In this document: positions 1 through 36,760 of the stretch, in pieces
How positions within the stretch are numbered: position 1 is the stretch's first letter
How the letters are laid out: each line of letters opens with the position of its first letter
Assembly (NCBI RefSeq): GCF_004010195.1
Contig: NC_057718.1
Span: forward strand, 64,145,110 to 64,183,587
DNA from: Chiloscyllium plagiosum
Lineage: Eukaryota
DNA length: 38,478 bases
Direction: 5' to 3'
Program-made: the position numbers and the translations under genes
The notes under the pieces: generated by a model
Database searches by the model: none
Seen by the model: only the letters and a program-made list of their open reading frames with translations
What the model was told of the DNA's origin: nothing

Positions 1-1030
1 GCATTTCACAGGGATCATTCCCTCTGGGACACCCTAGTCCATTCCTCGACCACCATCACCAGCCCCTCTTCTCATGCCCCTACCCATGTAACTGCAGAAG
101 TTGCAACCCCTGCCCCTTCACCTAGTCCCTGCTCATCATTCAAAGGGCCTAAACAGTCTTTCCAGTTGAAAGTTATAAACCACACAACACCAACAGGTTT
201 ATTTGGAAGCATAGCTTGCGGAGCGCCGCTCCTTCACCAGGAGGCTCTTCATCACAACCACTTGATGAAGGAGCGGCACTCAAAAAGCTAGCGTTTCCAA
301 ATACACCTGTTGGACTATAACCTGGTGTTGTATGATTTTTAAAAACTTTGTCCACCCCAGTCCAACACCAGCCAAGTCATGGTTTCCAGGTGAAGCAGCA
401 TTTCAATCTTGTGTATTGTATTCACTGCACCCAATGTGGCTTACTCTACATTGGAGAAACTAAACACAAATGGTGACTGCTTTGTAGAACACCTCTGGTT
501 CATATGTAAGCATGACCCTGACCCTCCCATAGCTGGTCATTTTAACACAGCATCCCGCTCTCATGCTCACTTGTCGAATCATAGCACAAACTGGAGGAGT
601 AACATCTCATCTTCAAACTAGGCATTTTACAACCTTGTGGGCTCAAAATTGAGTTCAATACCTTCAAATTGTGAACACATTTCTTTCCCTTTCTTTTAGC
701 TTTGCCTTTTACATTCTGTCTCCCTCAATTCAACTCCCCCCCTTGTGGACAGTCTGTTCTTTCCAGTCTGGCAGTTAGACACATCATTGTTCTGTTATTT
801 TCACACTACAATCATTTAATCTGAACTATCAACATCCATTCTTCCCCAGCACTCCAACACCCCCTACTCCCACTGTTGTTGCCCCGTCCACAATTTGCCT
901 TAGCTCTAATGAGAAGTCATCTAGACGTGAAATATTAGCTTTTTTTCTCTGCCTGATGCTGCCTGGCCTGCTATGATCTCCAGCAGTTTTGGTTTTCAGT
1001 TCATATTCCAGCATCTGTGGTAATTTGCTC
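1..1030 (+). mobile_element. Decayed 3' part of a Penelope-like retroelement (GIY-YIG endonuclease region plus pseudo-LTR), Neptune-like
   Basis: Manual translation gives a Cys-rich linker YPCNCRSCNPCP (81-116), a GIY-YIG motif VYCIHCTQCGLLYIGETK (411-464), then CFVEHL and IAGHFN, broken by frameshifts. The 3' end has a degenerate hammerhead core (CTAATGA 906-912, GAAA 929-932) followed by a gatgctgcctggcctgct...ttccagcatctg pLTR-type end. Interrupted by an insertion at 171-382. Confidence 0.85.
171..382. mobile_element. Fold-back PLE terminal-repeat insertion (family B) nested in the PLE endonuclease region
   Basis: Inverted arms 171-241 and 261-347, a ~35-nt unpaired tail 348-382, flanked by the near-direct repeat tttccagttgaa (159-170) / tttccaggtgaa (383-394). 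Each arm carries a degenerate hammerhead core. Confidence 0.8.
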
Positions 1031-1061
1031 TTAGTTGCTCATCTGAGGTTCTGCTAAGCTA

Positions 1062-2337
1062 ATGAGGGCTGAGCAGTAGACGTGATCTATATGGAGCTGA
1101 AAATGTGTTGCTGGAAAAGCGCAGCAGGTCAGGCAGCATCCAGGGAACAGGAGAATCGACGTTTCGGGCATAAGCCTTTCTTCAGGAAACCTCAGTAAGG
1201 CGTTCGACAAGGGTTTCCCATGGGAGACTGGTTAGCAAGGTTAGATCTCATGGAATACAGGGAGAACCAACCATTTGGATACAGAACTGGCTCAAATTTA
1301 GCAGACAGAGGGTGGTGGTGGAGGGTTGTTTTTCAGGTTGGTGGCCTGTGACCAGTGGAGTGCCACAAGGTTCAGTGCTGAGTCGACTACTTTTTGTCAT
1401 TTATATAAATAATTTGGATGTGAGCATAAGAGATATAGTTAGTAAGTTTGCAGATGACACCAAAATTGGAGGTGTAATGGAAGAAGATTACTTCAGATTA
1501 CAATGGGATTTTAATTAGATGGACTAGTGGGCTGAGAAGTGGCAGATGGAGTTTAATTTAGATAAATGCGAGATGCTGCATTTTGGGAACGCAAATCTTA
1601 GCAGGACTTATACACTTAATGGTAAGGTCCTAGGGAGTGTTGCTGAACAAAGAGTGCAGGTTCACAGTTCCTTGAAAGTAGAGCCACAGGTAGATAGGAT
1701 AGTGAAGAAGGCATTTGGTATGCTTTCCTTTATTGGTCAGAGTATTGACTACAGGAGTTGGGAGGTCATGTTATGGCTGTACAGGACATTGGTTAGGGCA
1801 CTTTTGGAATATTGCATGCAATTTTGGTCTCCTTCCTATCGGAAGGGTGTTGTGAAAGTTGAAACAGTTCAGAAAAGATTTCTAAGGATGTTCCAAGGAT
1901 TTGAGCTATAGGGTGAGGTTGTATACCTGGGGCTGTTTTCCCTGGAGCATTGGACGCTGAGGGGTGACCTTATAGAGGTTTATAAAATCATGAGGAGCAT
2001 GGATAGGATAAATAGAGAAAGTCATTTCCCTGGGGTGGATGAGTCCAGAACTAGAGGGCATAGGTTTAGGGTGAGAGGGGAAAAATATAAAAGTGACCTA
2101 GGGGCAATGTTTTCTCACAGAAGGTGGTGCGTCTATGGAATTATCTGTCAGAGGAAGTGGTGGAGGCTGGTACAATTGCAACATTTAAAAGGCATCTGGA
2201 TGGATATATGAATAGGAAGGGTTTGGAGGAGTATGGGCCAGTTGCTGGACAATGGGACTAAATTAGTTTGGGATATCTGGTCGGCATGGACGAGTTGGAC
2301 CGAAGGGTCTGTTTCTGTGCTGTACAACTCTATGACT
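1062..2337 (+). mobile_element. 5'-truncated CR1-type LINE (HER1-like), decayed RT C-terminus and 3' UTR
   Basis: ORFs 1312-1518 (SGVPQGSVL...SKFADDTKIGG) and 1546-1911 (MEFNLDKC...LEYCMQFWSP), with stops and frameshifts; ctctatgact-type 3' end. Confidence 0.93.
1094..1188 (-). mobile_element. Solo PLE pseudo-LTR fragment (family A) with hammerhead core, inserted in the CR1
   Basis: Nearly identical to 8031-8124. Splits the CR1 motif tatatgga|c(c/t)tcagtaaggcgttcgacaag. Minus strand reads CTGAAGA-aaggc-ttat-gccc-GAAA-cgtc. Confidence 0.85.
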
Positions 2338-2615
2338 TTAAAATGACATAATGTTATTTCTCTTCTCTCATTTTAAATCTCACGATATAAATTAACTTCT
2401 ATTAATTTGCTAGGAGACCTTCAGTCACCTCTCTGACACATACTGGTTTCAGAAAGATAGACCTAATTAGATAGTAAATGCCTTCACAAAAATAGACCAA
2501 CACTCATATGTCACTAGTTTAAAATCCAAATGCTTAAAAGAAGAGTCAAAGTTATGCTGCAGGGGAACAAAGCTAGAATACATTTTGCAACATTTTCTGT
2601 ACATGTTTTCATTAT

Positions 2616-2931
2616 GATTAGATTACACTAGATTCCCTACAGTGCAGAAACAGGCCCTTTGGCCCAACCAGTCCACAGTCATCCTCCGAAGAGTAACCCA
2701 CCCAGACCCATTTCCCTCTGACTAGTCCATTTCCCTCTGACTAGCACCTAGCACTATGGGCAATTTAGCACGGCCAATTCACCTAAAGTGCACATCTTTG
2801 GACTGTGGGAAGAAACTGGACACAGGGAGAATGTGCAAACTCCACACAGATAGCTGTCCGAGGCTGGAATCGAACCTAGTGTCCTGGCGTTGTGAGGCAG
2901 CAGTGCTAACCACTGAGCCAACGTGCCACCC
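2616..2931 (-). mobile_element. tRNA-derived SINE (HE1-like)
   Basis: Minus strand begins gggtggcacgttggctcagtggttagcactgctgcctcac (A box) with a ggttcgattcc B box, and ends in a CR1-like tail with atcta-type repeats. Internal 18-bp tandem duplication at ~2708-2744. Confidence 0.9.
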
Positions 2932-3013
2932 CTCTCTCCTATCCTCTCCCAAAATCTTTGACCTGATTCATCTCTTTTGTGAGGTAAATCAGTAAAGATA
3001 TGGAAATTATATA

Positions 3014-3172
3014 CAGTGGAACCTCGATTATCTGGCATTCGATTATCTGAATTTCTGATTATCTGGCAAGATCGCAAGGTTCCAACGCTCAGCTAAACTA
3101 TGTTATCCAGCATTCGATTAACCAAATGAAATACTCCCTGCCCATGTCCTTTGGATAATCGAGGTTCTTCTG
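3014..3172. mobile_element. Tc1/mariner-superfamily (Tigger/pogo-like) MITE
   Basis: TIRs cagtggaacctcgattatc (3014-3032) and gataatcgaggttcttctg (3154-3172); TA on both sides (3012-3013, 3173-3174); internal gattatctg sub-repeats. Confidence 0.85.
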
Positions 3173-5160
3173 TAGATAAAGTTCGTGATTTTGCTTGTTC
3201 TTTGTTGGTTTTCATTAAATCAGAGATTCACTCAATCTGACTGAAGGAATTTGCAATGGTGTAAGTGTGAGAGAATTAAGAGGTGGTTAAACTTCTTCTG
3301 CTCCATTATTAATGTTGGATACGGTTGTTAGTTTCCCAAGGAAAAAAAGAAGTGGTCCATCTAGACATTGTTGTTCTTTATAGAAAGTAGCTTATTTCTG
3401 GGTAGTTTTGACATGTTCTTCAAGGTTCTGTTCCAATACATGAATATACATATTGTGTTGGGAATGATTTGATTTATTGCTTGGTATTTTCTTTAGATTT
3501 CTGAGAAGTGGCTCTTTTGCTACAATTAAGACTTTGTTGTTGGAAAGCTGGACTATCTTGTGAGATTTTGGAAACTTTTGGAAATGTTTTATTTTCACAA
3601 GAATCAGCAAAATTTCTTTAGAAAAATGGTTAAAAGCTTCTGAGTTCAGTTCAAAGGAGACATGGCTGAAATCTGATGTAAGGGTACTTTCTTCTGGAAA
3701 AGGAAATTGTTCAGAACTGTTAAGGAATATAGTATCTGAGAGTAAGAATCTCAGTTGTGTGAGTCAGAGAAAGGCTTCACAGATCACGGGACCAAAACTG
3801 AAAAAAAGGTTAAACCTATAGATTTGATAGGGAAGAAAAGTTTCTTTGGAATTTGATAAACTGTAAAGTGGTCATGTTGTGAAGTAAATGGGATTTTATT
3901 TTTCCAAATGTTTTGAGAATATGTATAAATGTTAGTCAACATTTGTAAAAAAAGGGAAAAGGTGGAAAGAGATATTATGTAAAGACTTCAGGACCCTGGA
4001 CAACCTTGCAATGATCTTACAGAGCTGCATACCTCTGAACGTGAACAACACAGTGTAGGTGGAGTTAGAACACGACCAGACTAGACCATGCTACATGAGA
4101 CTAGAACCTCACAGAGTCTTGTGAGCACATGGACATGAACACACAAGGACAGATTAGTCCTCACCTAATATAACTGTAGGATCAGAGGCTGGTAAATCTA
4201 CAATTGCCATGTATAGCAACATTTAGTATTAATTGTAATAAATACTTTGTAATACTTTAGCCCAAAAACAATTTTTGAATATAGTTCCTCCCTGATCAGT
4301 CTGACTCAAACTCAAGCTCATCGTCTGGTACCAAACTGCTTGATAAAAATATTATTAAAAATTGCTATTAAAATCATTGCGCAAAACACAAGTGAAATCT
4401 TCCCAGCCTCTGAATGATGTGAGCACTTATTACAAAGTTGGGTAAATTATGTGAGGTGACTAGTAAGGAGTTTCTCGACACCTAGAGTAAAAAGATCCAT
4501 TTTCCAGCCAGCCATTGGATAGCAAGATGAGAATCTCATTGCTGAGAATGTGAGAGGCCTATTTACATCCATTAACAGCTCATTATTACACAATCTTACC
4601 TCATGCAGTTTCTCCTTCTCCATCTTGATAGATAGAAACTATAACCAAGAATTCCCAACATGAAAGTCAGAGCAGGTACCTGTGACTCCAAACATCCATC
4701 TTGGACACCAAGTACCAACATCTCAGGGCACACGCCATTGGCAGTGGCTGTAGACAACCACATCCATAGATGTTGGCATCCAACATGTAACTAGCCACTT
4801 TGCACTCTTTCGGCACATCTCTGATCCACTTGGAAGATGATTCTGCACTTTGGAGTGCTGCTGCCAAAGCCACATTGCGGGCAGGGACAGGTGCCTATAT
4901 CATGAATTCGATGACGTTGCATCTCAGGGATCATCGCTTGCTTTCTTTGCGCTCACTCACTTCCTACCCCCTTAGATGGCCTCAGCATTCCTGTCTTGCT
5001 TGCCTTTTTGCAATGTTGTCCCCTCACTGTCAAGGTACCTCTGTACTGAATTGCTGTTTAAGACAAAGTCAGGCAGCTGGTTATACTTGGCAGCAAAGGT
5101 TAGTGAAGGGGCTGGATGTGTTGCCGTATGGCACTGTGTGACATCAATTTCACATCTGCA

Positions 5161-5580
5161 CCCCTCCACCTGTCCTGGCTTTTCCGACCCTACTGTGGAC
5201 CTTTTCTCCTGGAATGAGACAAACAGAGGGATTGAGAGAGATGAAAGTGGCTGACACAATTGTTAGTGCTAGTGCAGATGGTGGAAAAGTGGCAAGGTGC
5301 CCCGAGTGAGAGTAAGAAGTGCACACAGCATGCAGGATAAGTAGGTTTCAGGGGGGCATGTGTGAATGAGAGCAAATGGCAAAGTTGCTACATGCAATAG
5401 TGAGAGGGATGAGCATGATCCTTAGTGCAAGGTGGGTACAGAGAGGTGGTGAAGGTGTGGTATTGGAAAGAAGAAGGTGGCACTTGCCCCAGTGAAGGAC
5501 TGACCTTCTTGCAGCACTGCTGGGCATTTCTTCAGCCTTTGGAGACAGCACTGAGCCAGGTGGAAACCTCAGACCAGGGT
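5161..5580 (-). pseudogene. Decayed spliced Myb/SANT-like ORF, probably from a PIF/Harbinger transposon
   Basis: Minus strand from 5579 reads PWSEVSTWLSAVSKG*RNAQQCCKKV. After an intron-like segment ending in a pyrimidine tract and cattccAG (5210-5209) it reads EKRS/HSRVGKARTGGG with one frameshift. Confidence 0.6.
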
Positions 5581-7993
5581 CTGGTACCGTAGTCTCCTCA
5601 ACTGGTCATGGATGAATGAGCCAGCCCTCGTCTGCACTGTCTGCCCACCAGGATGTTTGTAAACTGGTGAGACATGTGTGTGGCTAATAAAACAAAGCAG
5701 GCAGAGCAGTTCTGGACTGACAGCATTTCGACCAGGTGCACAATTCCCCATCAAAGGTGGGCCTGGTACCCAGAGTCCCAGGACGTCCTGGAGTACGTCC
5801 AGCTCGGACAAGTGAAATAATATGAAAAGCAATGCACTTTAGGGGCACAGCTAACAAGGGGACTTTGGGGAAGATAAAACGATAAAACGATAAAACCTGT
5901 GAGGCTTCATGGAGAGATACCCACCAAGAAATTCACCAAAAATGACACTCAATCAATTTCTTGAAAGATTCCATTCGATAATAATGAACAAATAACATGA
6001 GAGCTACACTTCAACAGTGAAATGAGAAGGAGCAGCAAATGTGAAAGAAGTTGTAGTTTTTGAGTGAATTGTTATTGAGTGTTTTTGTCTCCTTTTTTTG
6101 GCTTTCCTCTTTTCTGCTCTATTTCATGTCTGATGGTCACTCAAAACCCAGGAGTGTATAGTGGCGACGCCCTGGGTTTCCCTATTGACAGGTACTGCCC
6201 CTAGCCCCCAATGTAAAGTGCCAGGCTCAAGCTCTGAAACTGTAAGAGTGACACCAAATCCCTCCACTACCCACACCTGCCAACACTTACCTACAGTCTC
6301 ACTCACTCTGCTTGTCCTCTCCAATGATTATACCTTTCATCTTTTATCCTCAACAAATTTCTCTTTTCCTGCTCTCATTCCATTATCCCAGTGTCAATTC
6401 TCTCCCCTCCCTGACATCAGATCAAATCAGCACTGGAATAGTGTGAGGAAATGCCATCTGGCCAGAGGTGGGGGCCTCCTACTCAATCTGGAACGAAGTA
6501 GAGAGGGTCTCAGATTAGACATACATTGATCTGCAATGCCAATGTACAACTCAATGCTACTGTCCAATCTGCATGCTGCCAGTGAATGCAAATACTGTCA
6601 AAACAAAATTGGCAATGCAAATCAGAAAAAAAAACAGTTCCCCAACAAATAAATAACGTTACAAGAAAATGATGCTAAGTGTGGCAGCTTAAAGTGAGGG
6701 CTTACTGTAATTAGGTGGTCAGATTGTTAAAATATCTGAGACATCTCTTACAGAAAGGAAATAGGAAAGACTCAGCCTATTGTAAACTTCAAAGGTAAAA
6801 GTGAATCTTCATGATCTTTTCTTCCTCAGCAGATCACTTTGTCTTCCCCTCCCCCACCCATCCCTCCAACAATCTTCCAACAGCTGTTGGCTGCTCTTTA
6901 AATGATTAGTGTAAAACTTGCCTCCTCGCAGCCCATAAAATTAGAGTGCATCATCATGGGAAGGTGGCAGTATTTTTTGATACGTCTTCTGTTCTCCCTC
7001 TGCCCCCCACTGAGCAGTTAACAATGGCAGCTTGTTTGAAGGTGAGATGTGCACTTTCAGAAAGTGCCCAGTGCCATCTAGGAGGTGGTGTCGGCTTTTA
7101 CTTTAAGCTGCTTTAATGACTCTGTTAATTTTACCATTAGCTCAAAAGTGTTCAAATTAAGTTGCTCCGTGCATTGAGATTGCTTCGGCAATGATCAAAA
7201 GTAAGATTTGAAGGCATTCCTATTTTACATAGCTTTGAAACAATCAGTATTTAAAAGGGAGCTCTACCATTCATTGCAAAAATAACTTAGTTAAAGAGTT
7301 AACGGTGTGGAATATTTGAGCTGCAGTAAAAAAAAACCAGACAGAAACTAGTAAGTGATGTTTGATATGCTTCTGTAGCATTCAACTTGTGGTGCTGAAT
7401 GATAAGAGGATTGCACACTAATATTTGTGATCTTTCCATAAAATGAACTGCACTATAAAATCATCCACACTGACATAAGGAAAATCGGCTGGTGTTTAAA
7501 ATGAGCCTCCCCAGTGAATCTTTTCATGACTGACTGCACGCTCAGCTTCCCCAACTTGTTCTGCTGCCAGGGATTTCAGCAACTGGGTACTGTGACTCAT
7601 TACAACTCTATTGTTGACCTCCTTCCACCCTCTCCAGCTCTGAACTATTTGTTGCAGTTTTTGTTATTTTCATCTGATTGTGAGCTGTGAATGACTGTCT
7701 TTCTTTCTCTCTCTGTTTTGTTACTGGTCCTGCATGTGAAGAAGATTAAACTAATATCAGCTGTCAAACAAAGCACGACTTCCTGTTATGGCAATATATG
7801 CGTACAGAGATTACACTTTTTGTCATTCTAATACTGAATACACATGTGCCTGTGTGCAGGGTTTCATCTCAATCTTTTCAGGATTACCAGGAAAATACAG
7901 ACCTGTAAACAGGTTAATGTTTTTAGAACTGCTAGCTATAGTTCCTTCAATAGACCTATATTCTCACCTTCAGTACACCTGCTTTTGATTTAC

Positions 7994-8212
7994 TGAGGAG
8001 AAAGTGAGGTCTGCAGACGCTGGAGATCAGAGCTGAAAATGTGTTGCTGGAAAAGCGCAGCAGGTCAGGCAGCATCCAGGGAACAGGAGAATCGACGTTT
8101 CGGGCATAAGCCCTTCTTCAGGAATGAAGAAGGGCTTATGCCCGAAACGTCGATTCTCCTGATCCCTGGATGCTGCCTGACCTGCTGCGCTTTTCCAGCA
8201 ACACATTTTCAG
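7994..8212. mobile_element. Fold-back PLE terminal-repeat insertion (family A) with two head-to-head hammerhead cores
   Basis: 90-bp inverted arms 8031-8120 and 8125-8214 (1 mismatch, 4-nt loop ggaa), unpaired tail 7995-8030, exact 15-bp TSD ctgcttttgatttac (7979-7993, 8213-8227). Confidence 0.92.
8090..8126 (-). ncRNA. Minimal type I hammerhead ribozyme motif
   Basis: Minus strand cattc-CTGAAGA-a-GGGC-ttat-GCCC-GAAA-C-GTC-gatt: intact core, 4-bp stem II, palindromic ACGT stem III, GUC cleavage triplet. Stem I is weak. Confidence 0.75.
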
Positions 8213-8629
8213 CTGCTTTTGATTTACATCTATCAATATTCAAACAAAATCTTTGCTGTCTCTGTTCAAACACAATCAGAAGGACAGTCACCACATTGGT
8301 CAGAGGCCAACTCGAATTTTCCAGTCATCCTCTGGGAACTCAGTCACGGCTGCCTAGGGATGACCCAGCTAGCAGACTGGGTGGGCCAAGACTCCTGGAT
8401 CAGTTGCATGCCTAGTCGCCCCAGACCTATCTAGCCCCATCTGCAGCCCAGGCTACTCGGTGGAGAGATATAGCGGGATGGGGGAGCTGTAGCCATTTTA
8501 ATTTCAAAAGTATTCAGGGGTCACCTCAAGATGCAGGCTGCAATTCCTTCAGTCCAAAAGGCTCCTAATATCAAGAGCCTACCCACTGTTCCTAACTGGA
8601 CTATGACTATGCCCTCTGAACACTAAATA

Positions 8630-8790
8630 AAGACCAAAGTAAGTGCGGATGCTGGAAATCAGAAACAAAAGCAGAAATTGCTGCAAAAGCTCCTTGTTCT
8701 GAGGAAGGGTTGCTGGTCCCGAAACATTAACTCTGATTTCTCTTCATAGATGCTAGCAAACCTGCTGAGCTTTTCCAGAAATTTATGTTC
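8630..8790 (+). mobile_element. Older PLE terminal-repeat insertion (family C) with short inverted arm
   Basis: Inverted arms 8672-8692 and 8767-8787, upstream tail containing gatgctggaaatcag, and a degenerate core CTGAGGA-aggg...ccc-GAAA-catt (8699-8728). Confidence 0.7.
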
Positions 8791-10726
8791 CTGTGGCCAC
8801 TAATTGGAACATTTTGCAAAAAAACACTTTTGTGCAGGGTTGAGACTTGCATTTGACCCAGATGCGTAGGCCCTGGCACCAAACAGAAAACCCTGCCTCA
8901 AATCTCTGGCCTGTTATTCCAGACCAAACAGAAGCAGTTCTGTCACTGATATGTGGATATGTTAAGCTCTATTGATATGGTCTAGGACTGCAGATGTCCA
9001 GGTAATTTTCCATCAGTTCAACCATAAAATGCTGTTTTTGGGAGGAAAAAGAACTCACATGAAGGGAGTAAAAAAATTTAACTTTGCAAAGTATCCAATA
9101 AAAACAACCATGTACTAAAAAGATTCCAGTTTAAGAGCTGGGCCACGTTTGATTCTATTTCAAAGAGATGGACTTTGCAAAAGAGCAAATCCAATCGAAA
9201 TATGATATAAATTGGCCAGGTAACAATTGAAATAGTTTGGTGTTAATGAAACAATCACATGAAACAAGTGCATATGGAAAGCACTTCTGACTATTTGATC
9301 CAGAAGAACAGGCTAGTAACTGGATGAGGAGGCCCAGGTTCAAGACCCACCTAATCTAGAGGTGTGTGATTAAAAATCTGAACAGGTTGTTTGAAAATAT
9401 TTGTTTTTTAGAAACAAACCTGCAGAATCCTTGCATTCTGCACCTCCTACATGCCGGTTGAACACCTGCTCTCTTAACAAGAGCATCAATGATGTCTATA
9501 ACTGAAAAATAATGACAAACTCTGTCTTTTGCTGTTTCAATTCGCTCTATATTGTAATAGTATCCCAAAAAAAATGCCTTCTTTGAATTTTCAACAAATT
9601 AATGCTAGCCTTGCCCGCTGTAAATCTTCACTGCATATTTATTGGGGTGCTTCTCAGCTGTCACTGCCAAAGACTATAACTGGCCTGTGAGTAATGCCTC
9701 TTGCAGTTCTGCTGACTGCCAAGTTATGCTCTGTTTACCGACTCTCCAATATAATCTTTCTTCTGTGGGCTGAGTTGACTTTGACAGTCACTTGTGAAAA
9801 AATATTTTCAAATAACTTCATCCTCCTAGAATGCCTATGTAGTTCTACACTGCCAGCAACAACCTGAAATGGTTGTTTTTCATCTTCCCACAGATTTTCT
9901 TTTGTTTGCCTTCGGGTTTTGCAAATGTATTATTTCAGCTGAGAATTCAATGTGTTAATGGTCTTTATATCTTGACTGCACAGAAGAATGACTAATGCTA
10001 CATCTCCCCCCCCCACCCATCACAATGAGCATCTATCTCCATCCTGTGAGTTTTAAAAAGCAAGGCAAGCAATTTGTCCAGCACCTACTCACTTTAGGTG
10101 ACAACAATTAATTAGCTGAAGAGGAAAAGAAGTATTAATTCTAACACTGGGTGGTGTGTCTGCTGTTGAAAAACACTGCTAACTAGAGAGCATTGGGCCT
10201 GTGGGTTTGGCACCTACCTTGGGAAACATTTGCTCAGTTTCTTCCTGCACTTTCCTTTGTTTGCTCACGAGATAATTTATGTGCTGGAAGCTGGATAATC
10301 CTGGAAGCCCAGCCTGTGGGAATATGAATGAATACAAACGGTGGTGAAAATATAGATGGGAAAGAACTTTCATCAGTAATCGCTTACCTCCTTCAAAAGC
10401 TGCTGTGTCATAAACCACAGAGTTTTATACTTTTCCCTTTGAAAGTTTTGTAAACTCACGTTTGTAAAAAAGATTTAAATAATTGTTCTATTAAAGTGAA
10501 GTAAAATAACTTTGTCAGAAGAAATAATGATAAACAGATATTATTTTGATCTTCTGTAATAAGTGTAGTTTTGATAAAGATGCAAATTCTTTTTTTGTGT
10601 CGTATTAGAAGGCACTGTCTGGACTTGGCATATAAAAGAGGTTGTAGATTCGATTCCTGACCAGTGCTGAGTTAACTAGAACTCATTTATTTAATTAGTC
10701 TCAGTGTTTTCAAACTAATAAGAGAG

Positions 10727-13159: not shown

Positions 13160-13163
<4 letters not shown>

Positions 13164-13650: not shown

Positions 13651-13652
13651 AG

Positions 13653-26051: not shown

Positions 26052-26304
26052 TTTTTGCCTTACTTATTTTATTCTTAAGTATACTATTCTTGCCTTTATA
26101 CTCGAAGGATGTTTGTGATTTTTTGGATTGGAATAAATGCAAAATATTACATCTTGGTAAAACAAACAAGGGCAGGACTTACACTGATTAAAGGTTGGGC
26201 CTCGGATAGTGATATGGAACAAAGAGACCGAGGGGTTCTGGTCTTTGAAGTATGTGTCACATGCAGACAGGGTGGTTCAGAAGGGGTTTAGCACATTTGC
26301 CTTC

Positions 26305-26602
26305 TGGGACAACACTACTATCATAGGGCAAGCCAGACAGAGAACAGCCAGGGAATTCCTAGAGGCATGGCATTCATCCACAAACTCCATCAACAAACAC
26401 ATCGACCTGGACCCAATATACCAACCACTACAGCGGTCGGCTGAAACTGACAACCGGAGGCGGCAGGGACAGATCACTATAAACACCGGAGGAAACATCA
26501 ACGAAGCGCTTCGCAGGAGGCTCCCAAGCACTGATGATGTCGCCTAGCCAGGGGACGAAACGTTTGCAACAAAGACTTCCAGCTCGGCGAACAGAACCAC
26601 AA
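26305..26602 (+). mobile_element. 3' end of a Penelope/Poseidon-type retroelement (endonuclease C-terminus plus pLTR)
   Basis: In-frame WDNTTIIGQARQRTAREFLEAWHSSTNSINKHIDLDPIYQPL followed by a hammerhead motif. Fused to an upstream CR1 fragment (~26130-26304). Confidence 0.8.
26528..26567 (+). ncRNA. Minimal type I hammerhead ribozyme motif
   Basis: GCA-CTGATGA-t-GTCgCCT-agcc-AGGgGAC-GAAA-C-GTT-TGC: stem I GCA/TGC, stem II 6 of 7 paired, palindromic stem III, GUU triplet. Confidence 0.8.
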
Positions 26603-27206
26603 CATACATACACTCAGATATGCACAAAACACACAATGTACGGGGGGGGGGGGAGGGAAGTCTTGGTGGAGGAGGAAGACATCAGAATTATCAGAACAAT
26701 TGGAGACAGACAAACTGACAGAATGTAATGGAACTTGTACAGGGCGCAGGATACTGAGGAAGTGTAATCAAAAAAGCTTTGGGCCTCTTTCGCCTCATAC
26801 TGAATATTTGTTGATTGCCTATTTTTGTGACCCTTAATATCTGAAACTAACAGAAACTGTTTATTTTCAGGCATCAAAAGAGAACAAGCGTGAAATGAAA
26901 GAGTCAGGCCGGATAGCTTTGTGGTAACGTGAACTGATGCTGCTGAAGAGACAGTGGTTTGAGGAATGATAGCTGTAATCGTGGCTGCATCAGACCCAAG
27001 AATGAAATCACTTTTGAAATCCACGAGGCAGGAGTTGGAGTTGATACAGTGGTTAAAGAAGTGAGTTTTAGTAGATGCCTGAGAAGGGAAATAAATAGCA
27101 ATGAAAATGACAAAGAGATAAATATAAATTTAATTGGAGAGAGGTGCAGAACTTAGTCAACGTGAACATTCCTGGAAGAGAAGTGGCAAACAACTGGACA
27201 CCAGTC

Positions 27207-27430
27207 CAAAAGTAAAATACTCTTCTGGATTGCTGGAAATTGGAAATGAAAACAGAACATGCTTGGCAGAAACTGTGGAGAAAGAAACAGGGTTGATGTT
27301 TCAGGCCTTTCATCAGAGCTAGGAATAAACAACTCCTCAGTAGGTGAATTGTGGGATAGTAAGGAAAGAACAAAACAGAAGGTCTGTAATAGGGCTGAAT
27401 ACAGGAGACAAATGACAAACCATTGATGGA
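27207..27430 (-). mobile_element. Old PLE pseudo-LTR fragment with degenerate hammerhead core
   Basis: Minus strand ctCTGATGAaaggcctGAAAcatc (27318-27295) followed by a ...gttttcatttccaatttccagcaatc end resembling 985-1015. Confidence 0.6.
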
Positions 27431-28626
27431 GCAGAGCCACACAGACTAGAAATGGGACATATACTTTTTGTTGGGATTCACTAGTTAACAATCAGTAGCT
27501 GAAACCTGAACAATTTTCGCTTTAGTGCTTTTTTCTGTTTTCCTTCCTCCATTAAGCTAGGAGAATTTGCCAGGCAAAACTGAAATACACCAAGCAGACA
27601 TGTTTGCCATTCAAGTGGTGAAAATTCACACAAATAAAATACTTGTCAGCACAAGTCACTGTTACTCTTCTTACCCTCTTCCTAATTTCAACTAGACAGG
27701 TACCTACTGGAGTTACATACCCTCACTAACATAATACACAGCCCTACTAAACTGAGTTAGATACTAATTGACAAGCAGCAACTCCAACTTCATGGTTCAA
27801 AATACAGAGTTGGAGGACATGTTGAACATGGAATTTCCCGGTAACTAACAGCTATTCTTCCTTTATAAACTTGCAAGCTATGTTACTTAGTGTGAATGGT
27901 ATCGTACAGCAGTATTGCTGAGGTGTGGGATTCTAAATTGGCATAGACCAGTAAAGAAACACTCCAACATTTCATTGTAAATAGTATACACAATCTGTCT
28001 TTAATACAACAGAAAACATCAACATTCTTTATTTAGAATGTTCACCAGTGGCGACAAATCAATGACTCCCTACATTAAGGGACAGCAATAATTGATTAAA
28101 ACATAATCAATTTTGTTTATAAAAAGGTACGGTGGCAACTTAAGTAAGAGCACAACCAAAGTTGAATAATTCGAGCACTTGGAGCAAAAGGATTTCGTTC
28201 CTTTTATTGGGAGCAACTGCTGAACAAAGTCAATCCAACAAGTTCTACATCAAAGGTTTAAACACTGGACTGCATCCAATTGGCAAACTCTGCCACAGGT
28301 GACATTATTTATAACTTCCATGTTCTTTGCTTATGATTTGAAAACTTTCATGTAAATGTGCAACGGGGAAGAAAATGGTTGTGACCACACTTAGAGGAGG
28401 CAGGGTAACTGACTCAACCCGTGAGGGAGGGGGCTGCAGCTAACACTGATTGTAGGGCTTTTAAAAGGGGAAGAACATTGATCTCAGGTCTATGCAATGT
28501 ATAGCAGACTGGCTGCCTATTCTCGTCATCCTACAGAATACACCCTGTGTGTTGCACCTCTCTGATCAACTCTGACAGCTGTTAGCTTTTCATATGGAGG
28601 AAGACAAGCTTTAGGGATGTCACACA

Positions 28627-29060
28627 CCCCTCCACCTGCAGGGCTCTCTCTTCCTTGTTACGGGCTGTCCTGTCCTGTAATGACAGAATAGTAGGGGAAG
28701 TTAGTGAAATAGGTACTGGTGCATATGGAAGCAAGGTGGAGAGATATATTGAAGGATGAGGAAGCAGTACAGGGGCAAAGCAGGGTTGGTGGTCTGGGAG
28801 GACAGTGGGAGGTAACAGAGTAAATAGTGGAACATGAGCCTTTGTGGGAGGTAGGTGCAGGAGCAGAGATAAAGTGAAGGTGAGGTGACAGAGAGAAAAA
28901 GTGTGTCACTGTTACTCTGGTGGAGCAGAGGAGATCATTAACTTGCTTTCTGTATTGCTGGACATTTCATCTCGCCTTGGAGATGGCACTAATTCAGGCT
29001 GGCAGCATTGGAAGTGCAGCCTTCTTTGGTGGTTCTCTGGGTAGAGGATGCCTCTCCCTT
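28627..29060 (-). pseudogene. Second decayed spliced Myb/SANT-like ORF (PIF/Harbinger-type)
   Basis: Minus strand ISAISKAR*NVQQYRKQVNDLLCSTR, then GTAACA (donor 28915) ... TTACAG (acceptor 28675), then DRTARNKEERA../GGG. Confidence 0.65.
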
Positions 29061-29635
29061 GGTTCACCCTGCCCATCAGGACCTCCGGGCAGCTCTCCCA
29101 CTAATTTTTTTTCAGTTGTATGGTCCTCTGAAGTCTGTGCACCTTCCAGGACCAGAAATCAATGCTGAAGGGGGTTGGCAAGCTGATCACTGTGCACGGG
29201 TTCTCAGAATGGCTGCTCACACACATAGGTACACAGTGTAGAGGGAACACTGCCTCCAGTCCCTGTCGGAGAATCACAGTGTCACCTTCCTCTACTCCGA
29301 CATGTTGAGACTCAGGCTTTGAGTAAGGAGGGCAGCTTTGGAATGCCAGTGCTCATACAGGTTGACAACAGACTTTTTAAGATGGCACGGACGCAAGAGA
29401 TGCCAGTCTTTTGGAAGACATCCATTAAGTGGTGAGTTATTTGTGAGAATGGCATGTGCCAAGAAGGGTCATAGTAGGTAATTAATGAAGTGAGTTTGGT
29501 AAGATAACTTGCTACGTGACATGGTAAAAAACTCTTTCGAAAAGCTCAATGGAACTCAGATTTAGTCAAGAAAACTCATTCCAGAGGATATCATGTAAAA
29601 TGTATTTAGCATTTATTATTATCACAAGATCATAT

Positions 29636-30050
29636 AATGTAGAAACAGAATCAGACATTAAGTCCATTGAGTCTGCTCCACAGTTGAATGAGATCATAGC
29701 TGATTTGATAATCCTCCATTCCACTTTCCTGCCTTTCCTCATAAGCCTTGTTTTCTTACTGATTAAAGTTGTCTATCTTAGCCTTAATGAACAGCTTTAA
29801 TAATTCTTAGTGGTAAAGTATTCCACACATTCACAACCCTTTAAGAGAAGCAATCCTCCTCAAAGTTATCTTAAATGGGCATGTCCTTATTCTAAGATTA
29901 TGCCTCTGATCCGAGACTCTCCCCTAAAGGGAAATGAATTGTCAGTATCTACTCTGCAAAGTCACCCTAGAATCTTACATGCTTCAATGCTTACATGCTT
30001 CACCTCTCACTCTTCAAAACTCCAATTGGTACATGCCCAACCTACCAAAC
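29636..30050 (-). mobile_element. Old CR1-like LINE 3' end
   Basis: gagtctgctccac...aatgagatcatagctgat...ccactttcctgcc; similar to 14706-15000 and 21230-21550. Confidence 0.6.
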
Positions 30051-30391
30051 CACTTCTGATAGGGCTGTATTATCATATTGCCTTATGTAAAATTGTAATA
30101 ATGCGATGGCCTCTCTCTAATTGTATTCAGTACAACTAAAGTTTCCACAAACTTTTGACTCTCCCCTAAAGGGAAATGAACTGTCAGTATCTACTCTGCA
30201 AAGTCACCCTAGAATCTTACATGCTTCAATATAGTCACCTCTCACTCTTCAAAACTCCAATTGGTACATGCCCAACCTACCAAAACACTTCTGATAGGGC
30301 TGTATTATCATATTGCCTTATGTAAAATTGTAATAATGCGATGGCCTCTCTCTAATTGTATTCAGTACAACTAAAGTTTCCACAAACTTTT
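29915..30391. repeat. Tandem direct duplication (242 bp and 235 bp)
   Basis: Copy 1 is 29915-30156 and copy 2 is 30157-30391. They differ by two substitutions and one complex indel. Confidence 0.97.
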
Positions 30392-31569
30392 TAAAAACAT
30401 TGTCTTTGTAGCAGACCTTATCTACAAAACACATCAGGACATCCAGATTGAATTATGCACCAGTGGGGGCTCGGTCTGACTGTGTTTAGCAGGGTTCAAA
30501 ACTAGAACATGTTACTTTAGACACAAGAATACTAACAGGCTTTGGGCTGGCACTCAGAACTCAGAAGCTGTGCATACTCTCTGGAACCTTCTCAGGTGGA
30601 CAGCGGTGAAAAAAGTGTTGCCTATTTTCTTCTGTTTTTGCTTCTCCGAGGTGTGATTTCCAGCAAAATACTGGGAGCTGGGTTTTGGTGCTCTTCCTCC
30701 CACAGTACCCCGAGCTCACAGTTCCACTAGACAATCTGACTATGAAGAGAACCCACCACTTAAAGCCAGTGCACTGGAGTTAATATGATTTCTAGGTAGT
30801 GGGCAATAAAACTAAAAGACCAGTGTTGTGATCCCTCATGCAGCCTTAGATCTTCCAGAGCAAGGAGTCAACCTCAACTGAATGTTGCAGACTGGTCCAT
30901 TCCAAGGTTCAGAACTGTGTGCTGAGGAACGCACTAAAGCTTGATTCCCCAAAGGTGCAGTGGGGATAGACCATTATCTAAGGTCTCTCTACCAAAGTTA
31001 AATGGGGGTCCGTTCAGATATCATACCCTCCCGCTGCCTCAAGTATGTAAATATAGTCTTGTACAAGTAAGAAATGCCTTTGGTTTGTATGTTGGATAGA
31101 GTCAAACTCCAATGTTGGTTTGTATGCTACTGTACAGAATCAAATTGCTTTATTGACTATGCATGCACATAAAGATATTCTTATGAATGAAGTTTCTTTT
31201 ACAAAACTTTTTTTAAAAATCCCTAATACAGCCTTACTGGATGCTAAAATATGGACTGTATCAGATGCAGCATGCATCAGTTCCTGTACTGATTTCGAGA
31301 AGAATCAATAGAGAAAAAGTGTCTGCCAGCAAGTCAGGGGAGAGAAACACAATAGCACCAACATATGTGTCAGAAAGAAAAACCCAACATCAAATATTAG
31401 GAAATAATCTGCTGGGATTATTCAGGATTGAAGTGTTGCCTAAATTATGAAATGTGCTTCATGCATTGTAAGTGTGTCTTCCCATGATACTGTTTGAAAT
31501 AGTGTAGGAACGTGTTTGGCAATGCCCTAGTTCAGCACTTAGCCTTCAACCAACATCTAAAAACTGATT

Positions 31570-31735
31570 ATTGTCACATGGCATTTAAGGGATTTGGCTG
31601 TGCACAAATTGGCTTCTGCTTTTCCAACAGTCCAACAGTGATTAAACATTGAAAAGCATTTCATTAGCAGTAAAGCACTTTGGGATATCCTAAGGTTATG
31701 AAAGATACTACAGAAATACAATTCTTTCTCTTTCT
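31570..31735 (+). mobile_element. Ancient DeuSINE/AmnSINE-like 3' fragment
   Basis: gctgtgcacaaattggct...aacagtga...aaaagcatttcattagcagtaaagcactttgggatatcct resembles the recalled DeuSINE 3' region. A weaker copy lies at ~37505-37595. Confidence 0.55.
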
Positions 31736-31794
31736 CTCTTTGGAATTGACCCTTATTGTACTGCCAAATGGTTAGTTCCATTTATCTGATCCAC

Positions 31795-32297
31795 AGCGGC
31801 ACGTTGGCTCAGTGGTTAGCACTGCTACCCTCACAGTGCCAGGGACCTGGCTTTGATACCAGCTTTGGACGCTCTAGTTTCCTCCCACAGTGCAAAGATG
31901 TGCAGGTTTTGTGAATTGGCCACTCTAAATTGTCCCGTAAAGTCTAGAATGTGCAGATTAGTTTGGTTAGCCATGGTAAATATGGGGATAGGGTGGGATG
32001 CTCTTCAGAGGGTCAGTGCAGGCTCGATGGGCTCAATGACTTCTTTGAGGAGAAAGTGAGGTCTGCAGATGCTGGAGATCACAGATGGAAATGTGTTGCT
32101 GGAAAAGCGCAGCAGGTCAGGCAGCATCTAGGGAACAGGAGAATCGACGTTTCGGGCATTAGCCCTTCCTGAAGAAGGGCTAATGCCCGAAACGTCGATT
32201 CTCCTGTTCCCTAGATGCTGCCTGACCTGCTGCACTTTTCCAGCAACACATTTCCATCAATGACTTCCTTCCACACTGTAGGGATTCTATGATTCTA
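31795..32297 (+). mobile_element. HE1-like SINE (internally deleted) interrupted by a fold-back element
   Basis: Head gcggcacgttggctcagtggttagcactgct; tail ccacactgtagggattctatgattcta. Confidence 0.85.
32047..32256. mobile_element. Fold-back PLE terminal-repeat insertion (family A variant) with hammerhead core
   Basis: 85-bp inverted arms 32084-32168 and 32174-32258 (1 mismatch), tail 32047-32083, TSD tcaatgacttc (32033-32043, 32257-32267). Intact plus-strand core CTGAAGA-a-GGGC-taat-GCCC-GAAA-CGTC (32169-32196). Confidence 0.92.
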
Positions 32298-33747
32298 CAC
32301 TGCCTGTGTGCTAAGTGTGCACAGTGTCAGTGGTGAAGTAATTGACATCTATTCTGCCATTTGCAGTTGCTTTAACTGGCAATCAGTTCCTTTGCATTGT
32401 GCAATAAAAGATGCCCAAATCTTTTTAATCCAAAGCTGAATGAAATAAAGAGAGCCCAGGTTACATTTATTAATAAAAATAGATAGTCTGAGTTAATACA
32501 TCTAATACTGTCTTTTAAAAGATACCACTATCAGGATCTGTTTCATCAGCTTTTTGAGTGTAATGCATAAGTTTCTCTTTTGCATTTCCTCTTTTAAACA
32601 GAAATGTTCTCATTACTGTTTTACCATGCTTCTGTGAACAATTGCTCTTGCTCAAGTCAGACCGATGATAACAAGGAATGAGTTAAGATCTATTTGTCCT
32701 GGACCAGACAGAGTAAACAGTGGCCCATGTGGCTTACCTTAGGCAGGAGGTAGGATGAAAGACTTGCCTGGCCTCCTCACGGTTTGGTGACATTCCCAGT
32801 AATCCTCACAGCATTTGGAAGCAATTACAAAAGTCAGCTGAATGTACTCATAAGCGGTTTAATGGTCAAATTGTGTAGGACCAAACTTCTAAAGAATAAG
32901 GTGGATCACAGAGCTTTAAAATAGGATGTATACATGGATTTCCCAAAAATACCGATTGATACAATATCAGTAAGGATAGTCTCTACTTGCAACAACTGTG
33001 ATGGAAATCATTCAAAATGAGTGAAATCTGAAAATGTATTTTACACGTACATTCACAACAAAAGACATACTGCCTAATGTGTGAAATTTAAATCTACTAC
33101 TGCTGTGCTGCTTCATGAAATATTTTTAAAATAAATATTTATCTAACCCACAAAGATATAGGGGATTGGATTAAATCACCATTGAAAATTGCCAAGGAGG
33201 TTGTCACAATTACCCTATGTCCACTGAATATAATGCAGGTAGCAAGGCAACACCTAATGTTGCTTTGAGTCAGCCTCATATCTGGCATTTATCTCTGTTT
33301 CACCTCAGGCCCTCACATACTTCGCACTGCTACCATCTTCACACACATAGCTCACATTTGTACAAATTTCTGGCAATTTAACGCCACAGATGCTAAATAT
33401 TCACTAACACACTCCTTTCTCTTTCATGCAGAATTTCTCTTTCAAGTAGAATAAGGTGATGCCTGACTAAGTACAGTAGGAGATGGGCAGAGGGAGTTGG
33501 ACCCGGCTTGCTGTCCTCTCTTGTGGAGAAGATGTTGACGATAATTGGGGTGGCAACTGCTGAGGCTGGAGTGTCCTCATAATTAACCTGGATTCTTGCA
33601 TCCCACTGCCTCCTCATCAGAAATCTTTACTTACTCACAAGATGCAAATGAAGTAGGCATGCACCTTCTATTTTGTCCCCCTTCCTCTAAATAAGATGCA
33701 ACCTGACCACATAGTGAAGGAACATCGAGAAGAGAGTGATAGAGGCA

Positions 33748-34100
33748 GAGAGTCATAGAGATGTACAGCACGAAACAGACCTTTCAGTCCAACTCGTCCA
33801 AACAGACCAGTTATCCTAACCTAATCTAGTCTCATTTGTCAGCACTTGGCCCATATCCCTCTAAATTCTTCCTATTCATATGCCCATCTAGATGCCTTTT
33901 GAATGCTGCAATTGTACCAGCCTCCACTACTTCCTCTGGCATGACCCTCTATACGAAAACATTTAGGTCCCTTTTATATCTTTCCCCTCTCACCCTAAAC
34001 CTATGCCCTCTAGTTCTGGACTCCCCCACCCCAGGGGAAAGACTTTCTCTATTTATCCTAAAATTGCCCCTCATGATTTTATAAACCTTTATAAGGTCAC
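33748..34100 (-). mobile_element. CR1 3' end
   Basis: Reverse complement of ~1965-2337; agagtcatagag tail. Confidence 0.9.
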
Positions 34101-34121
34101 TCTCGAAGAACAAAGGACTGT

Positions 34122-34415
34122 CACTGTTGCCTCACAGCGCCAGGGACCCAGGTTCAATTCCAGCCTCAGGCGAATGTCTGTATGGAATTTACACATTCTC
34201 CCAATGTCTGCATAGGTTTCCTCCAGGTGCTCCAGTTTCCTCCCACAGTCCAAACTTTTGCAGGTAAGGTGAATTGACCATGCTAAATTGCCCATAGTGT
34301 TAGGTGCATTAGTCAGAGGGAAATGCGTCTGGTGTGTTACTTTTTGGATGGTCAGTGTGGACTTGTTGGGCCGAAGGGCCTGTTTCCAAACTGTTGAGAA
34401 TCTAATTTAATCTAA
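34122..34415 (+). mobile_element. HE1-like SINE, 5'-truncated
   Basis: cactgttgcctcacagcgccagggacccaggttcaattcc...gggccgaagggcctgtttcc...aatcta. Confidence 0.9.
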
Positions 34416-35494
34416 AAAAAAGTCCCCATTTGATGACAAGGCATTTAACGTTGTTTTGATTTAAAGTTGGTCTGTTAATAATGCCTATATTCTCATGTAG
34501 TGCATGAGGTAGATTTTAAAGATATTTTCTTCCGATCTTAAGTAGGGCTGCATGACCAGATTGGTGTCAGCTAGAAGCAGCCTGCTATTCTCAAACCTAC
34601 CTTCATGCTGCTGACACTCTGACTTGCAGCCTCTGTCACTCCCTGACTCACCCTCTTGCGGAACCTCCCACTCCCCAGAATTCCCACTGATGCTTCCCTC
34701 TTCTGAACCTGCATCCCCTTCTAAGTCCTGATCCACAGCCAGATCTGATCAGAAGCTGTAGCTCCAGCATAGTGAAAATGGGGATCCTGGCTGTGGAGAA
34801 GTGCTGTCAAAATCGACATTTTCCTTATAGATTGCTGCTTACCTCTCCTAAGCCTTTGGTGTGAGTGTTGGCTCTGGAGATGAGTGGCAGGAGGAGTAGC
34901 ATTGAAGTTGTGCCAGTGTGTTCATTCACCCTGAGGATTCAGGAGAAGGAGCCTATGAGAGAGAGAGAGCCAGGAGCAAGAGGTTCAGCGAGTGGAGGGT
35001 CGGCGAGAGGGGAATTCCGGGAACAGTCGCAGCTGCAAGACAGAGTGTTGGGAACAAGCACAGGTATACTGGTTAGGGAACAGGAGATGAGAGTACACAA
35101 ACCACAGGGTCTGTGGGTGGAAGGGTTCACAATGACTAGGACAGTCAAAGAACACCACTTGTTCATCTACCAGTGAAAGAATTTAGCAATGTCAACAATT
35201 TCAACTTACACGGTAAAATTTTAACATTTCTTTACTGATTTAGAAGACCCAAATTATGCTTTTATGTTGATTTTAATGCGATAATCTGATTCACTTAAAG
35301 TTGATTTTCTGGAAAGCAATTGCAACTTTAACTGAAGACTTACTGTATTGGAAGCCCACTCTGTATGTGTGCTAGATTATATACTATGTGGTTGGCAGAT
35401 AGCCCTGGTCATCCAGTACCTACCCTTTGGCCTGCCAAACTGATTCAAAACTGCTGCAGACTGAAGTCATCATGACTGCTAGGGTATTGATTAG

Positions 35495-35680
35495 ATCTTG
35501 ATTTAATTTATTATTGTCACGTGTACAGTGAAAAGTGCTGTTTCCGTGTGATCTAGACCAATCATACCTCATATAAGTATGTAAGTAGAACAGAATGCAG
35601 AATATGCTGTTACAGCTACAGAAAAGGTGCAGCCAAAGATCAAGTCTAATATATCAGAGGTCCATTCATAAGTCTGATCT
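35495..35680 (-). mobile_element. Probable LINE 3' end (Rex/L2-like)
   Basis: ttattgtcacgtgtacagtgaaaag is the reverse complement of the type of end seen at 19720-19754 (cttttcactgt...catgacaataa). Confidence 0.55.
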
Positions 35681-35984
35681 TGGCCATTGACCTGTATGAT
35701 TTACTGCCTAAGGTCATGCACTGAAGTGGAATCTCTTTCTATTCTGCTCTAGGCAGAGTTGATGTGACACTCACTTGGTGGTGTGAAGTAGTCAATGGCA
35801 CACTGCCCAATGAGGAAGTCTGCGAGCTTCGTAAATCCCAATGCTTGCTCTACATGCTGAGATCAGGCATGAGAGAATGATATGTAGTTACACCATAGTT
35901 AGTACTCTTTGAAGAGAAGTCCTCAGTGACCTTCTTTAACTAACAACGATACTGTGAAATGTTGAAAGTATTTCCAGTTTCAGC

Positions 35985-36760
35985 CCTGACATTCAGTGAT
36001 ATTATCAACACTGAATACCCCGGGATGACTTTGGACCAGAAACTGAACTGGATGAACTTGTAGCACGTGGCTAGAAAAGCAGGTCTGAGGCTGGAAATTC
36101 TATCTTGTGTAAATCACCTCCAACTTCTCCAAAAGCCTTCCTACCATCCACAAAGGCACAAGTAAGGAGTCTGAATGAACACTTAACACTTACCTGGATA
36201 AGTGTAGTGCCAACAACACTCAAGAAACTCAGCACCATTAAGAACAAAGCAGTCATCTTGATAGACAGAAAGTGAGGGCTGCAGATGCTGGAGATCAGGG
36301 CTGAAGAAGGGCTTATGCCCGAAACGTCAATTCTCCTGTTCCTTGGATGCTGCCTGACCTGCTGCGCTTTTCTAGCAACACATTTTCAGCATCTTGATAG
36401 ACAGGCCTTCTTCAGAATTCATTCAGTCTTCCTTTAGTGCACCTTTAGTATGTACCATCTATAAAGATTTACTGCAGCACTCAGCACTTTTTGAGCCTCC
36501 AGACTACCAGCTAGAAAAACATGAGCAGTAGCTGCACCTGAAAAACATCAACTCCTTTAAGTTCTTGTCCAACTATCACCCCAACCCAACTTAGAACTAT
36601 ATAATTGCTCCTTCACTATTGCTGGGTCAAAATCCTGACATTTCCTTTCTAATAGCACTTAGAAAGGACTGCACCAATTCAAAAAAGCAGCTTATCACCA
36701 CTCCTCAAGGGCAAATAACATTGGAGATGGCAATGATGCCCACATGCTAGGAATGACTAA
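35985..36760 (+). mobile_element. Decayed LINE 3' region (CR1/L2 group) interrupted by a PLE repeat
   Basis: gaccagaaactgaactgga..., ccaacaacactcaagaaactc...caccat...acaaagcag; reverse-complement similarity to 24400-24720. Confidence 0.65.
36269..36389 (+). mobile_element. Minimal PLE terminal-repeat insertion (family A): inverted tail plus one hammerhead-bearing arm
   Basis: Exact 15-bp TSD catcttgatagacag (36254-36268, 36390-36404). Core CTGAAGA-a-GGGC-ttat-GCCC-GAAA-CGTC at 36301-36328. Confidence 0.9.

Follow-up and report, generated by a model that had tools for sequence, protein, structure and literature searches.

How does a retrotransposon come to leave behind two head-to-head copies of the same end, only one of which carries the last few dozen nucleotides? 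The question is raised by a 38,478-nt stretch of the Chiloscyllium plagiosum genome (contig NC_057718.1 of assembly GCF_004010195.1, positions 64,145,110 to 64,183,587; "the window" below), in which mirror-image repeats are stubs, 5'-truncated and arranged head to head, of Penelope-like elements (PLEs). Five such insertions from three families (A, B and C) each show head-to-head arms with a tail confined to one arm. The insertion architecture itself is not new: the pattern is real and already in print, and what is added here are further families and counts that sharpen the mechanistic question. The available passages of a 2021 review call the origin of PLE inverted copies and of their one-sided tail undefined (PMC8557442), and those of a 2024 in vitro study leave the later insertion steps unvalidated (PMC11167929). 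The results below suggest that a staggered cut in the target leaves two 3' overhangs that probably both prime reverse transcription, each from its own fixed RNA site, the two sites being about 36 nt apart. A first-pass annotation of the window had proposed two priming events, one of them at the end of the RNA, with the ribozyme stalling synthesis; the two-priming idea stands, and the RNA-end and ribozyme-stall parts fall.

One tail per insertion

The regularity was counted in 153 stretches of 10 kb taken at fixed positions, which together with the window amount to 1,513,639 non-N bases, and in 30 further loci selected for the tail. Among the resulting 120 candidate arm pairs a target-site duplication (TSD) flanks 54, of which 35 are unselected and 19 selected; two of the selected rows are one insertion, hence 53 insertions in all. 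A mismatched-flank control for the TSD calls gave 0/374. All 35 unselected TSD-flanked two-arm family A insertions carry exactly one tail (18 on the left, 17 on the right), and so do all 19 selected rows. Under a relaxed parse, at 78% identity and with both ends free to reach the tail position, one tail was found in 44/45, the lone exception being a local 26-nt duplication. Loci anchored on the hammerhead core or on the tail, which partly overlap the earlier sets, gave one tail in 15/15 and 13/13 respectively (control 0/239). Positions within the element are counted from C3 of the hammerhead core as +1, numbered on L134, a natural family A copy (loci sampled outside the window carry L numbers). 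Family B shows one tail in 11/11, one pair scored as two-tailed by threshold having been re-read by hand with its end, at +88, within the tail-less cluster; family D shows one tail in 3/3, and family C, whose copies are too diverged, yielded no TSD-flanked pair.

Genome-wide counts, all of them pattern matches over the 3.56-Gb assembly, qualify the earlier statement that the tail is always on one arm. The 35/35 bear it out, but 58 two-tailed sites exist, so the pattern is almost, though not quite, a strict rule. Against 3316 tail-plus-arm matches of one subfamily these sites amount to at most 1.7%, where independent choice of site at p=0.5 would give 25%. A low tail probability is excluded because it predicts mostly tail-less pairs, contrary to the sample and to the share that tail-plus-arm matches have among all those with two arms, (3316+4456)/9466 = 0.82, by which tail-less pairs are not the majority; as a test between models, that ratio does not separate them. 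The near-strict rule leads to a sharp prediction: the two strands of one target should use different start sites. Six two-tailed loci were read, with a TSD visible by eye in none. Two of them, L192 and L193 (about 1460-1790), show a target-site inversion instead of a duplication. The same one-tail ends, with 15-bp TSDs, also bound insertions of 3-4 kb (L066 3020-6908, L101 3291-6363, L170 3798-6748), the interiors of L066 and L101 being largely assembly gap.

Family A is abundant, with 9410 exact matches to one 46-mer, 84,985 to a 20-mer tail pattern and 9466 two-arm matches genome-wide. Its arms are contiguous upstream, in L101 and L132, with the end of an open reading frame (ORF) that matches the GIY-YIG profile PF01541 above cut-off, a test that covered family A. 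Set by eye against the definition in PMC8557442, the L132 translation has the linker CX2-5CxxC and a CCHH motif around the GIY-YIG core; on these motifs family A is likely a member of the Neptune clade, a label to be read with the fact that Nematis shares a linker motif. A minimal hammerhead core with stem II, as described in PMC4209133, is present in families A, C and D and in B; an Rfam scan gave no hammerhead match, only hairpin-driven microRNA matches below their cut-offs. Family D, a fourth family of the same design, is also found in the window. Families B and D are presumably of Poseidon type. The 30-40 bp tail, the inverted 5'-truncated copy and the TSD of endonuclease-bearing PLEs are all present here. 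Partial tandems that form pseudo-long terminal repeats (pLTRs) occur as pLTR-tail-continuation-pLTR units in L132, L133, L135, L136 and L154. In these short tandems the post-tail sequence returns into the pLTR after 70-150 nt, and they are candidate non-autonomous mini-elements. The interiors of long family A copies are assembly gaps, and the six copies with downstream continuation are short deleted tandems rather than full-length ORFs.

In the window, the architecture previously described for five insertions is present in all five. The TSD length of 11-15 bp given with it fits three of them, whose duplications are exact (15, 11 and 15 bp); the other two are weak, family B having only 7 bp. 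The family C duplication, formerly called not clear, can be placed as a 9/12 match. Two boundaries move, the family B start to about 166-168 and that of the second family A copy to 32044, and the inverted arm does vary about as widely as first described, from about 5 to 90 bp. The parts are as follows (SINE, short interspersed nuclear element).

159-165: 7-bp duplication of the family B insertion, left copy; exact match to 383-389 (chance 16/2783 trials)
168-241, minus strand: family B tail-less arm, antisense, with its 3' end at the left junction
253-382, plus strand: family B arm with the tail (about 32 nt, 351-382); its minimal hammerhead, core from 262, is decayed
383-389: 7-bp duplication of the family B insertion, right copy
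7979-7993: TSD of the first family A insertion, 15 bp, left copy
7994-8131, minus strand: family A tail-bearing arm; after the tail (7994-8030) it crosses the hammerhead core, with C3 at 8121, and ends at about -5/-9
8125-8214, plus strand: family A arm without the tail, spanning +2 to +89/+91; complementarity to 8031-8120 is 99%
8213-8227: TSD, 15 bp, right copy; its first 2 bases are common to TSD and element
8617-8628: probable decayed TSD of the family C insertion, left copy; 9/12 match to 8794-8805 (chance 54/2784)
8629-8793: family C insertion; about 8629-8693 is antisense, the tail plus some 28 nt of arm, followed by the tail-less arm in sense orientation, its hammerhead core at 8699
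8794-8805: probable decayed TSD of the family C insertion, right copy
32033-32043: TSD of the second family A insertion, 11 bp, left copy, within a host SINE-like repeat; one copy in 37/38 paralogous flank pairs
32044-32168, minus strand: tail-bearing arm of a minor family A subfamily, from +130 to +6
32166-32256, plus strand: family A arm lacking the tail, from -2 to +88, with the hammerhead core at 32169; overlaps the other arm by 3 nt
32257-32267: TSD, 11 bp, right copy
36254-36268: TSD of the third family A insertion, 15 bp, left copy
36269-36305, minus strand: family A tail with only about 5 nt of arm, stopping at the RNA position of the other arm's 3' end
36301-36390, plus strand: family A arm lacking the tail, from +1 to +89; overlaps the tail arm by 5 nt
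36390-36404: TSD, 15 bp, right copy
1094-1188, minus strand: single tail-less family A arm outside the five, 5' end at -2; no TSD found
38308-38478, minus strand: family A arm without the tail, continuing past the window edge; upstream pLTR sequence is retained, with TATA-like and initiator-like motifs

The 7-bp duplication of the family B insertion is present as a single copy, read through by eye, in the paralogous host copy L204. That insertion lies within a decayed Neptune-like endonuclease end with a hammerhead remnant and tail at about 905-1030, so that window 1-1030 is one PLE inserted into another. Elsewhere in the window, 26380-26604 is a family D 3' end without the tail, its TATA box lying 52 nt ahead of the hammerhead; the AC-rich end resembles the AC-rich start site of the green anole element discussed below. 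A 157-nt direct repeat (99% identity, copies 235 nt apart) occupies 30000-30391.

Two start sites inside the RNA

Across the 53 insertions, TSDs are 14-16 bp long in 41, and the two 3' end sites lie 33-39 nt apart in 35/47. The fixed stop attributed to the tail-less arm holds for 47/53, which end at +83 to +92, but six end at +41 to +76. Ten insertions have paralogous flank pairs; for eight of them the paralogous empty site holds a single TSD copy, and for two it did not. Flank pairs in paralogous host SINEs of the insertion at 32044-32256 read through with one 11-bp copy in 37/38. The element itself extends beyond the tail, with the same continuation in 6 of the first 100 matches listed, and partial tandems agree. 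Both 3' sites are thereby shown to be internal to the RNA, and the tail end is therefore not the RNA 3' end, which contradicts the earlier idea that one of the primings took place there.

The same 3' ends bound insertions from 85 bp to 3.9 kb. Either arm may be longer, and arm lengths are independent. Reading of whole inserts showed that the tail-less arm carries sequence absent from the tail arm in 6/35 (ten had been listed with a longer tail-less arm, and four were dropped: two for internal deletions, one for a gap and one for a long unread insert), so the tail-less arm is not a DNA copy of the tail arm. Single arms with a TSD end with the tail in five cases and without it in six, a tally made partly by eye; because of these and of the asymmetry in 6/35, neither arm can generally have been copied from the other. 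At the junctions, microhomology between the TSD end and the RNA exceeds that in simulations, with a mean of 1.67 nt against 0.66 at the tail-less end (45/53 junctions scored) and 1.75 nt against 0.70 at the tail end (44/53); neither mean was attained in any of 2000 simulations. These are strict counts, used instead of mismatch-tolerant TSDs, which inflate the values (1.93 and 1.95). The one-tail rule, the microhomology at both junctions and the independent arm lengths together support two priming events about 36 nt apart, in the manner of twin priming, as do the two in vitro start sites reported for an anole PLE in the available part of PMC11167929.

The favoured route would begin with the GIY-YIG endonuclease cutting both strands about 15 bp apart, as the 14-16 bp TSDs and the in vitro behaviour of the anole PLE suggest. 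Pairing over 1-5 nt would then place one overhang at about +89 and its partner at about +125, the positions where the arms are seen to end, and the different pairing sites would put the tail on one arm and leave it off the other. Both sites would probably lie on one RNA held by a dimer, the downstream-primed enzyme displacing the first cDNA or halting early. In family A most cDNAs would run off the template end at about -3, where a wall of arm 5' ends is observed; this template end is probably the capped start of a transcript initiated in the pLTR, in which case palindromes of about 200 bp would be copies of the mRNA 5' end and kilobase insertions copies made from the 3' pLTR. The cDNA ends would finally be joined by host microhomology-mediated repair, as the observed junctions suggest, often within an imperfect palindrome at -2 to +8. 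Priming by one end only would leave a single arm with a TSD.

Could this be the normal PLE route, a programmed twin priming in which the dimer gives one RNA site to each overhang of the 15-bp cut? That stronger proposal falls slightly short of an even chance. If it were true, the tail, the inverted pLTRs and the TSD would be explained in one step, and a whole class of retrotransposons would by design prime from both DNA ends, something that L1 does only as a side reaction. An explanation would also follow for abundant hairpin repeats that can be mistaken for MITEs (miniature inverted-repeat transposable elements) or microRNA precursors.

Several observations weigh against priming at two fixed sites by pairing with the target. 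In the available part of PMC11167929, the two strands are alike in start site in vitro and there is no homology between target and start site. Microhomology is zero at 14/45 tail-less and 9/44 tail junctions, and since the control consisted of random targets its excess could reflect a sequence preference of the endonuclease. Among the six two-tailed loci, L192 and L193 arose by folding back, with 23-33 nt of the flank copied in inverted orientation.

Side observations at other loci concern where the ends fall. A family A tail arm sits inside a family B element at L009 (1381-2616), where the 17-bp TSD ends exactly at the B tail boundary; PLE start sites may be favoured insertion targets. Ends at about +195 to +198, some 70 nt past the tail, occur in L131 (2756-3095) and L134, L131 having the tail on one side, an end of this type on the other and a 13-bp duplication with 2 mismatches; a third start site or a deletion hot spot is possible.

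Do both cDNAs come from one RNA? This is plausible. Sister arms agree at 318/337 diagnostic cells, against 0.71 when shuffled (37/53 insertions usable), but the same agreement is expected from subfamilies separated in time or from gene conversion. Tail arms stop at the +89 site in 4/9 (post hoc p=0.02), against about 2 of the first 100 matches listed, an almost unfiltered sample, and the excess of such stops that one RNA predicts is not established. RNA folding found no strong stem joining the two start sites. Overlap of arms made on one RNA does have a precedent, because L1 twin priming can run past the internal primer.

Alternatively, both target ends would prime on two separate RNAs, an asymmetric dimer devoting one protomer to each site. 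Such dual priming, proposed for L1 in the available text of bioRxiv 10.1101/2024.08.27.596794, is unlikely, though several points speak for it: fully overlapping arms need no strand displacement, the arms of the two-tailed locus L194 differ in subfamily marks, and tail arms show no clear pile-up at +89. Against it, an extra rule is needed to make the protomers choose differently, whereas on one RNA the exclusivity comes free; the subfamily marks common to sister arms (318/337) also count against it without being decisive.

The centre of the palindrome

What sets the point at which the arms meet? The endpoint check suggested in the first-pass annotation was run on the sampled loci, with 126 arm 5' ends at an identity of at least 92%, unselected and selected loci mixed. 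The ends cluster as anticipated, but for the most part not at the cleavage site: 43/126 fall at -6 to 0, 28/126 at +1 to +7 and 6/126 at -10 to -7, with one at -39 to -11, 12 beyond -41 and nine at +24 to +35, near the cleavage predicted after +28. An inversion point near the hammerhead core is thus confirmed, 71/126 ends lying at -6 to +7. The boundary, 3-5 nt upstream of the core, is a sharp wall, often with an extra G, and the same wall is seen in single-arm copies.

Sequence at the wall points to a transcript start. A(-3) lies within an initiator-like motif, and a weak TATA-like run precedes it by about 30 nt. Among the first 100 matches listed, an A is found at -3 in 58, and in a hand tally of the non-templated cases G precedes it in 23/32, or in 20/29 once three palindromic junctions are removed (p=1e-6, background 0.26), under a pattern that left out most copies extending upstream. 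An extra G of this kind is a mark attributed to cap copying in L1 and SVA insertions, in the part of PMC3287187 available. The family A wall is therefore read as probably the capped start of pLTR-initiated RNA and not a ribozyme stall, on motifs and end positions; if so, thousands of palindromes of about 200 bp would have been copied from the element's mRNA at its capped 5' end. Two results pull the other way: a scripted count of the extra G on fetched loci is weaker (11/25, p=0.035, with 8 older-subfamily copies that have a templated T included), and family D has no hard 5' wall, hand tallies placing one peak about 30 nt behind the TATA box and another just before the hammerhead core. In family B the 5' ends cluster at -13 to +7 with a TATA box at -39, compatible with a transcript start or with the ribozyme. 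Because family B fits both causes and family D lacks a wall, the transcript-start reading rests on family A. A splice acceptor as the cause of the wall was rejected, the candidate AG being missing in one subfamily and the bases upstream of the wall varying.

Two further features of the 5' ends deserve mention. Several arms that start at -2 are preceded by GT or GG in place of the templated bases (also at window 1189-1190), perhaps a miscopied modified first base beside the cap. At single-arm 5' junctions there are short inverted copies of target or cDNA ends (L136, L091 about 3985-4010, L003, L177 about 10-35), as expected of templated end-joining.

Could the hammerhead set the centre instead, by stalling the enzyme or by cleaving the template? 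The wall matches the 5' strand of helix I in position, a small cluster (9/126, at +24 to +35) surrounds the predicted cut, families B and C end near the core, and one of the two family D peaks is there. However, a polymerase moving 3' to 5' on the RNA should stall on the 3' side of the structure, yet the majority of arms pass right through the ribozyme and end on its 5' side: 78/126 ends fall between +7 and 10 nt upstream of the core, against 1/126 at +15 to +23. Both the extra G and the fall-off upstream of -10 are as expected of a template end, and ribozyme mutants left insertion size unchanged in vitro (available part of PMC11167929). The ribozyme as main cause, by stall or by cleavage, is not supported, and it is quite unlikely to set the centre.

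A fold-back is very unlikely as the general route. It would have the cDNA 3' end snap back near the hammerhead and copy itself, a nick or bound protein ending the second arm before the tail, which is close to the self-priming view (Arkhipova 2013, PMC3846280) and the endonuclease-resolution view (Craig 2021, PMC8557442) as given in the available passages. L192 and L193 do run into flank, short snap-back inserts occur at some junctions, and the commonest join site is an imperfect palindrome. The asymmetric insertions already contradict it, since a fold-back cannot yield a tail-less arm longer than the tail arm (6/35; for example 36269-36389 and L149); nor can it yield TSD-flanked tail-less single arms, and the same 5' wall exists in single-arm copies, where nothing folded back.

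Barely credible is a non-autonomous palindrome, MITE- or retrozyme-like, copied whole from a few masters, for despite the high copy number (9466 two-arm matches) and the exact recurrence of some centre junctions (+6/-2 and +3/-2, for example), these recurrent junctions coincide with the microhomology hot spot, centres and arm lengths vary widely between near-identical copies, and identical ends delimit insertions anywhere from 85 bp to 3.9 kb.

Comparison with known systems

Inverted-pLTR insertions with a one-sided tail have been documented for Pen2a_Av (PMC3846280) and in the legend of Fig. 2 of Craig et al. 2021 (PMC8557442). Insertions of the Pen2a_Av type share with those described here the TSD, the head-to-head arms, the 30-40 bp tail on one arm, the 5' truncation and the hammerhead in the pLTR. 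They differ in that, in the available passages of these two papers, the tail is optional or "often" one-sided, whereas here it follows a near-strict rule with microhomology at both ends, and in that their TSDs are 8-10 bp against 14-16 bp here. Both sources attribute the one-sided tail to self-priming or to endonuclease resolution. In the literature searched, to which older PLE papers were out of reach, no statement was found of a model with one site per strand.

Non-long terminal repeat retrozymes and other minimal hammerheads resemble the present families in their type I core and palindromic helix III, and hammerhead pairs on opposite strands 100-700 bp apart were noted earlier (both from the available part of PMC4209133). 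Retrozymes, as portrayed in the accessible text of bioRxiv 10.64898/2026.07.22.740005, are tandem units. The five window insertions are instead dispersed head-to-head stubs with TSDs and a predicted ribozyme, and none forms tandem head-to-tail hammerhead units.

L1 twin or dual priming, as described in the parts available of PMC2837659 and bioRxiv 10.1101/2024.08.27.596794, is also among the close parallels. Both nicked strands prime, the inverted product lies within TSDs, joins show microhomology, and internal duplications can result. The geometry and junction microhomology of twin priming are likewise present here, and they suggest the priming itself. In L1 one primer sits at the poly(A) end and the other wherever an internal match happens to occur. 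The present elements lack poly(A) and extend beyond the tail; their two sites are both internal and fixed, and overlap of the arms is usually almost complete.

A biochemical parallel is the green anole's Poseidon, studied in vitro (Frangieh et al. 2024, PMC11167929). There, in the text available, both strands are nicked and extended, two internal start sites span the tail, the template is uncleaved RNA and a dimer is predicted. It shares with the model proposed here the two internal start sites, the use of both strands and the predicted dimer. Its main text does not link the two sites to the two insertion ends or treat inverted copies, and family A is of Neptune type, unlike the anole element.

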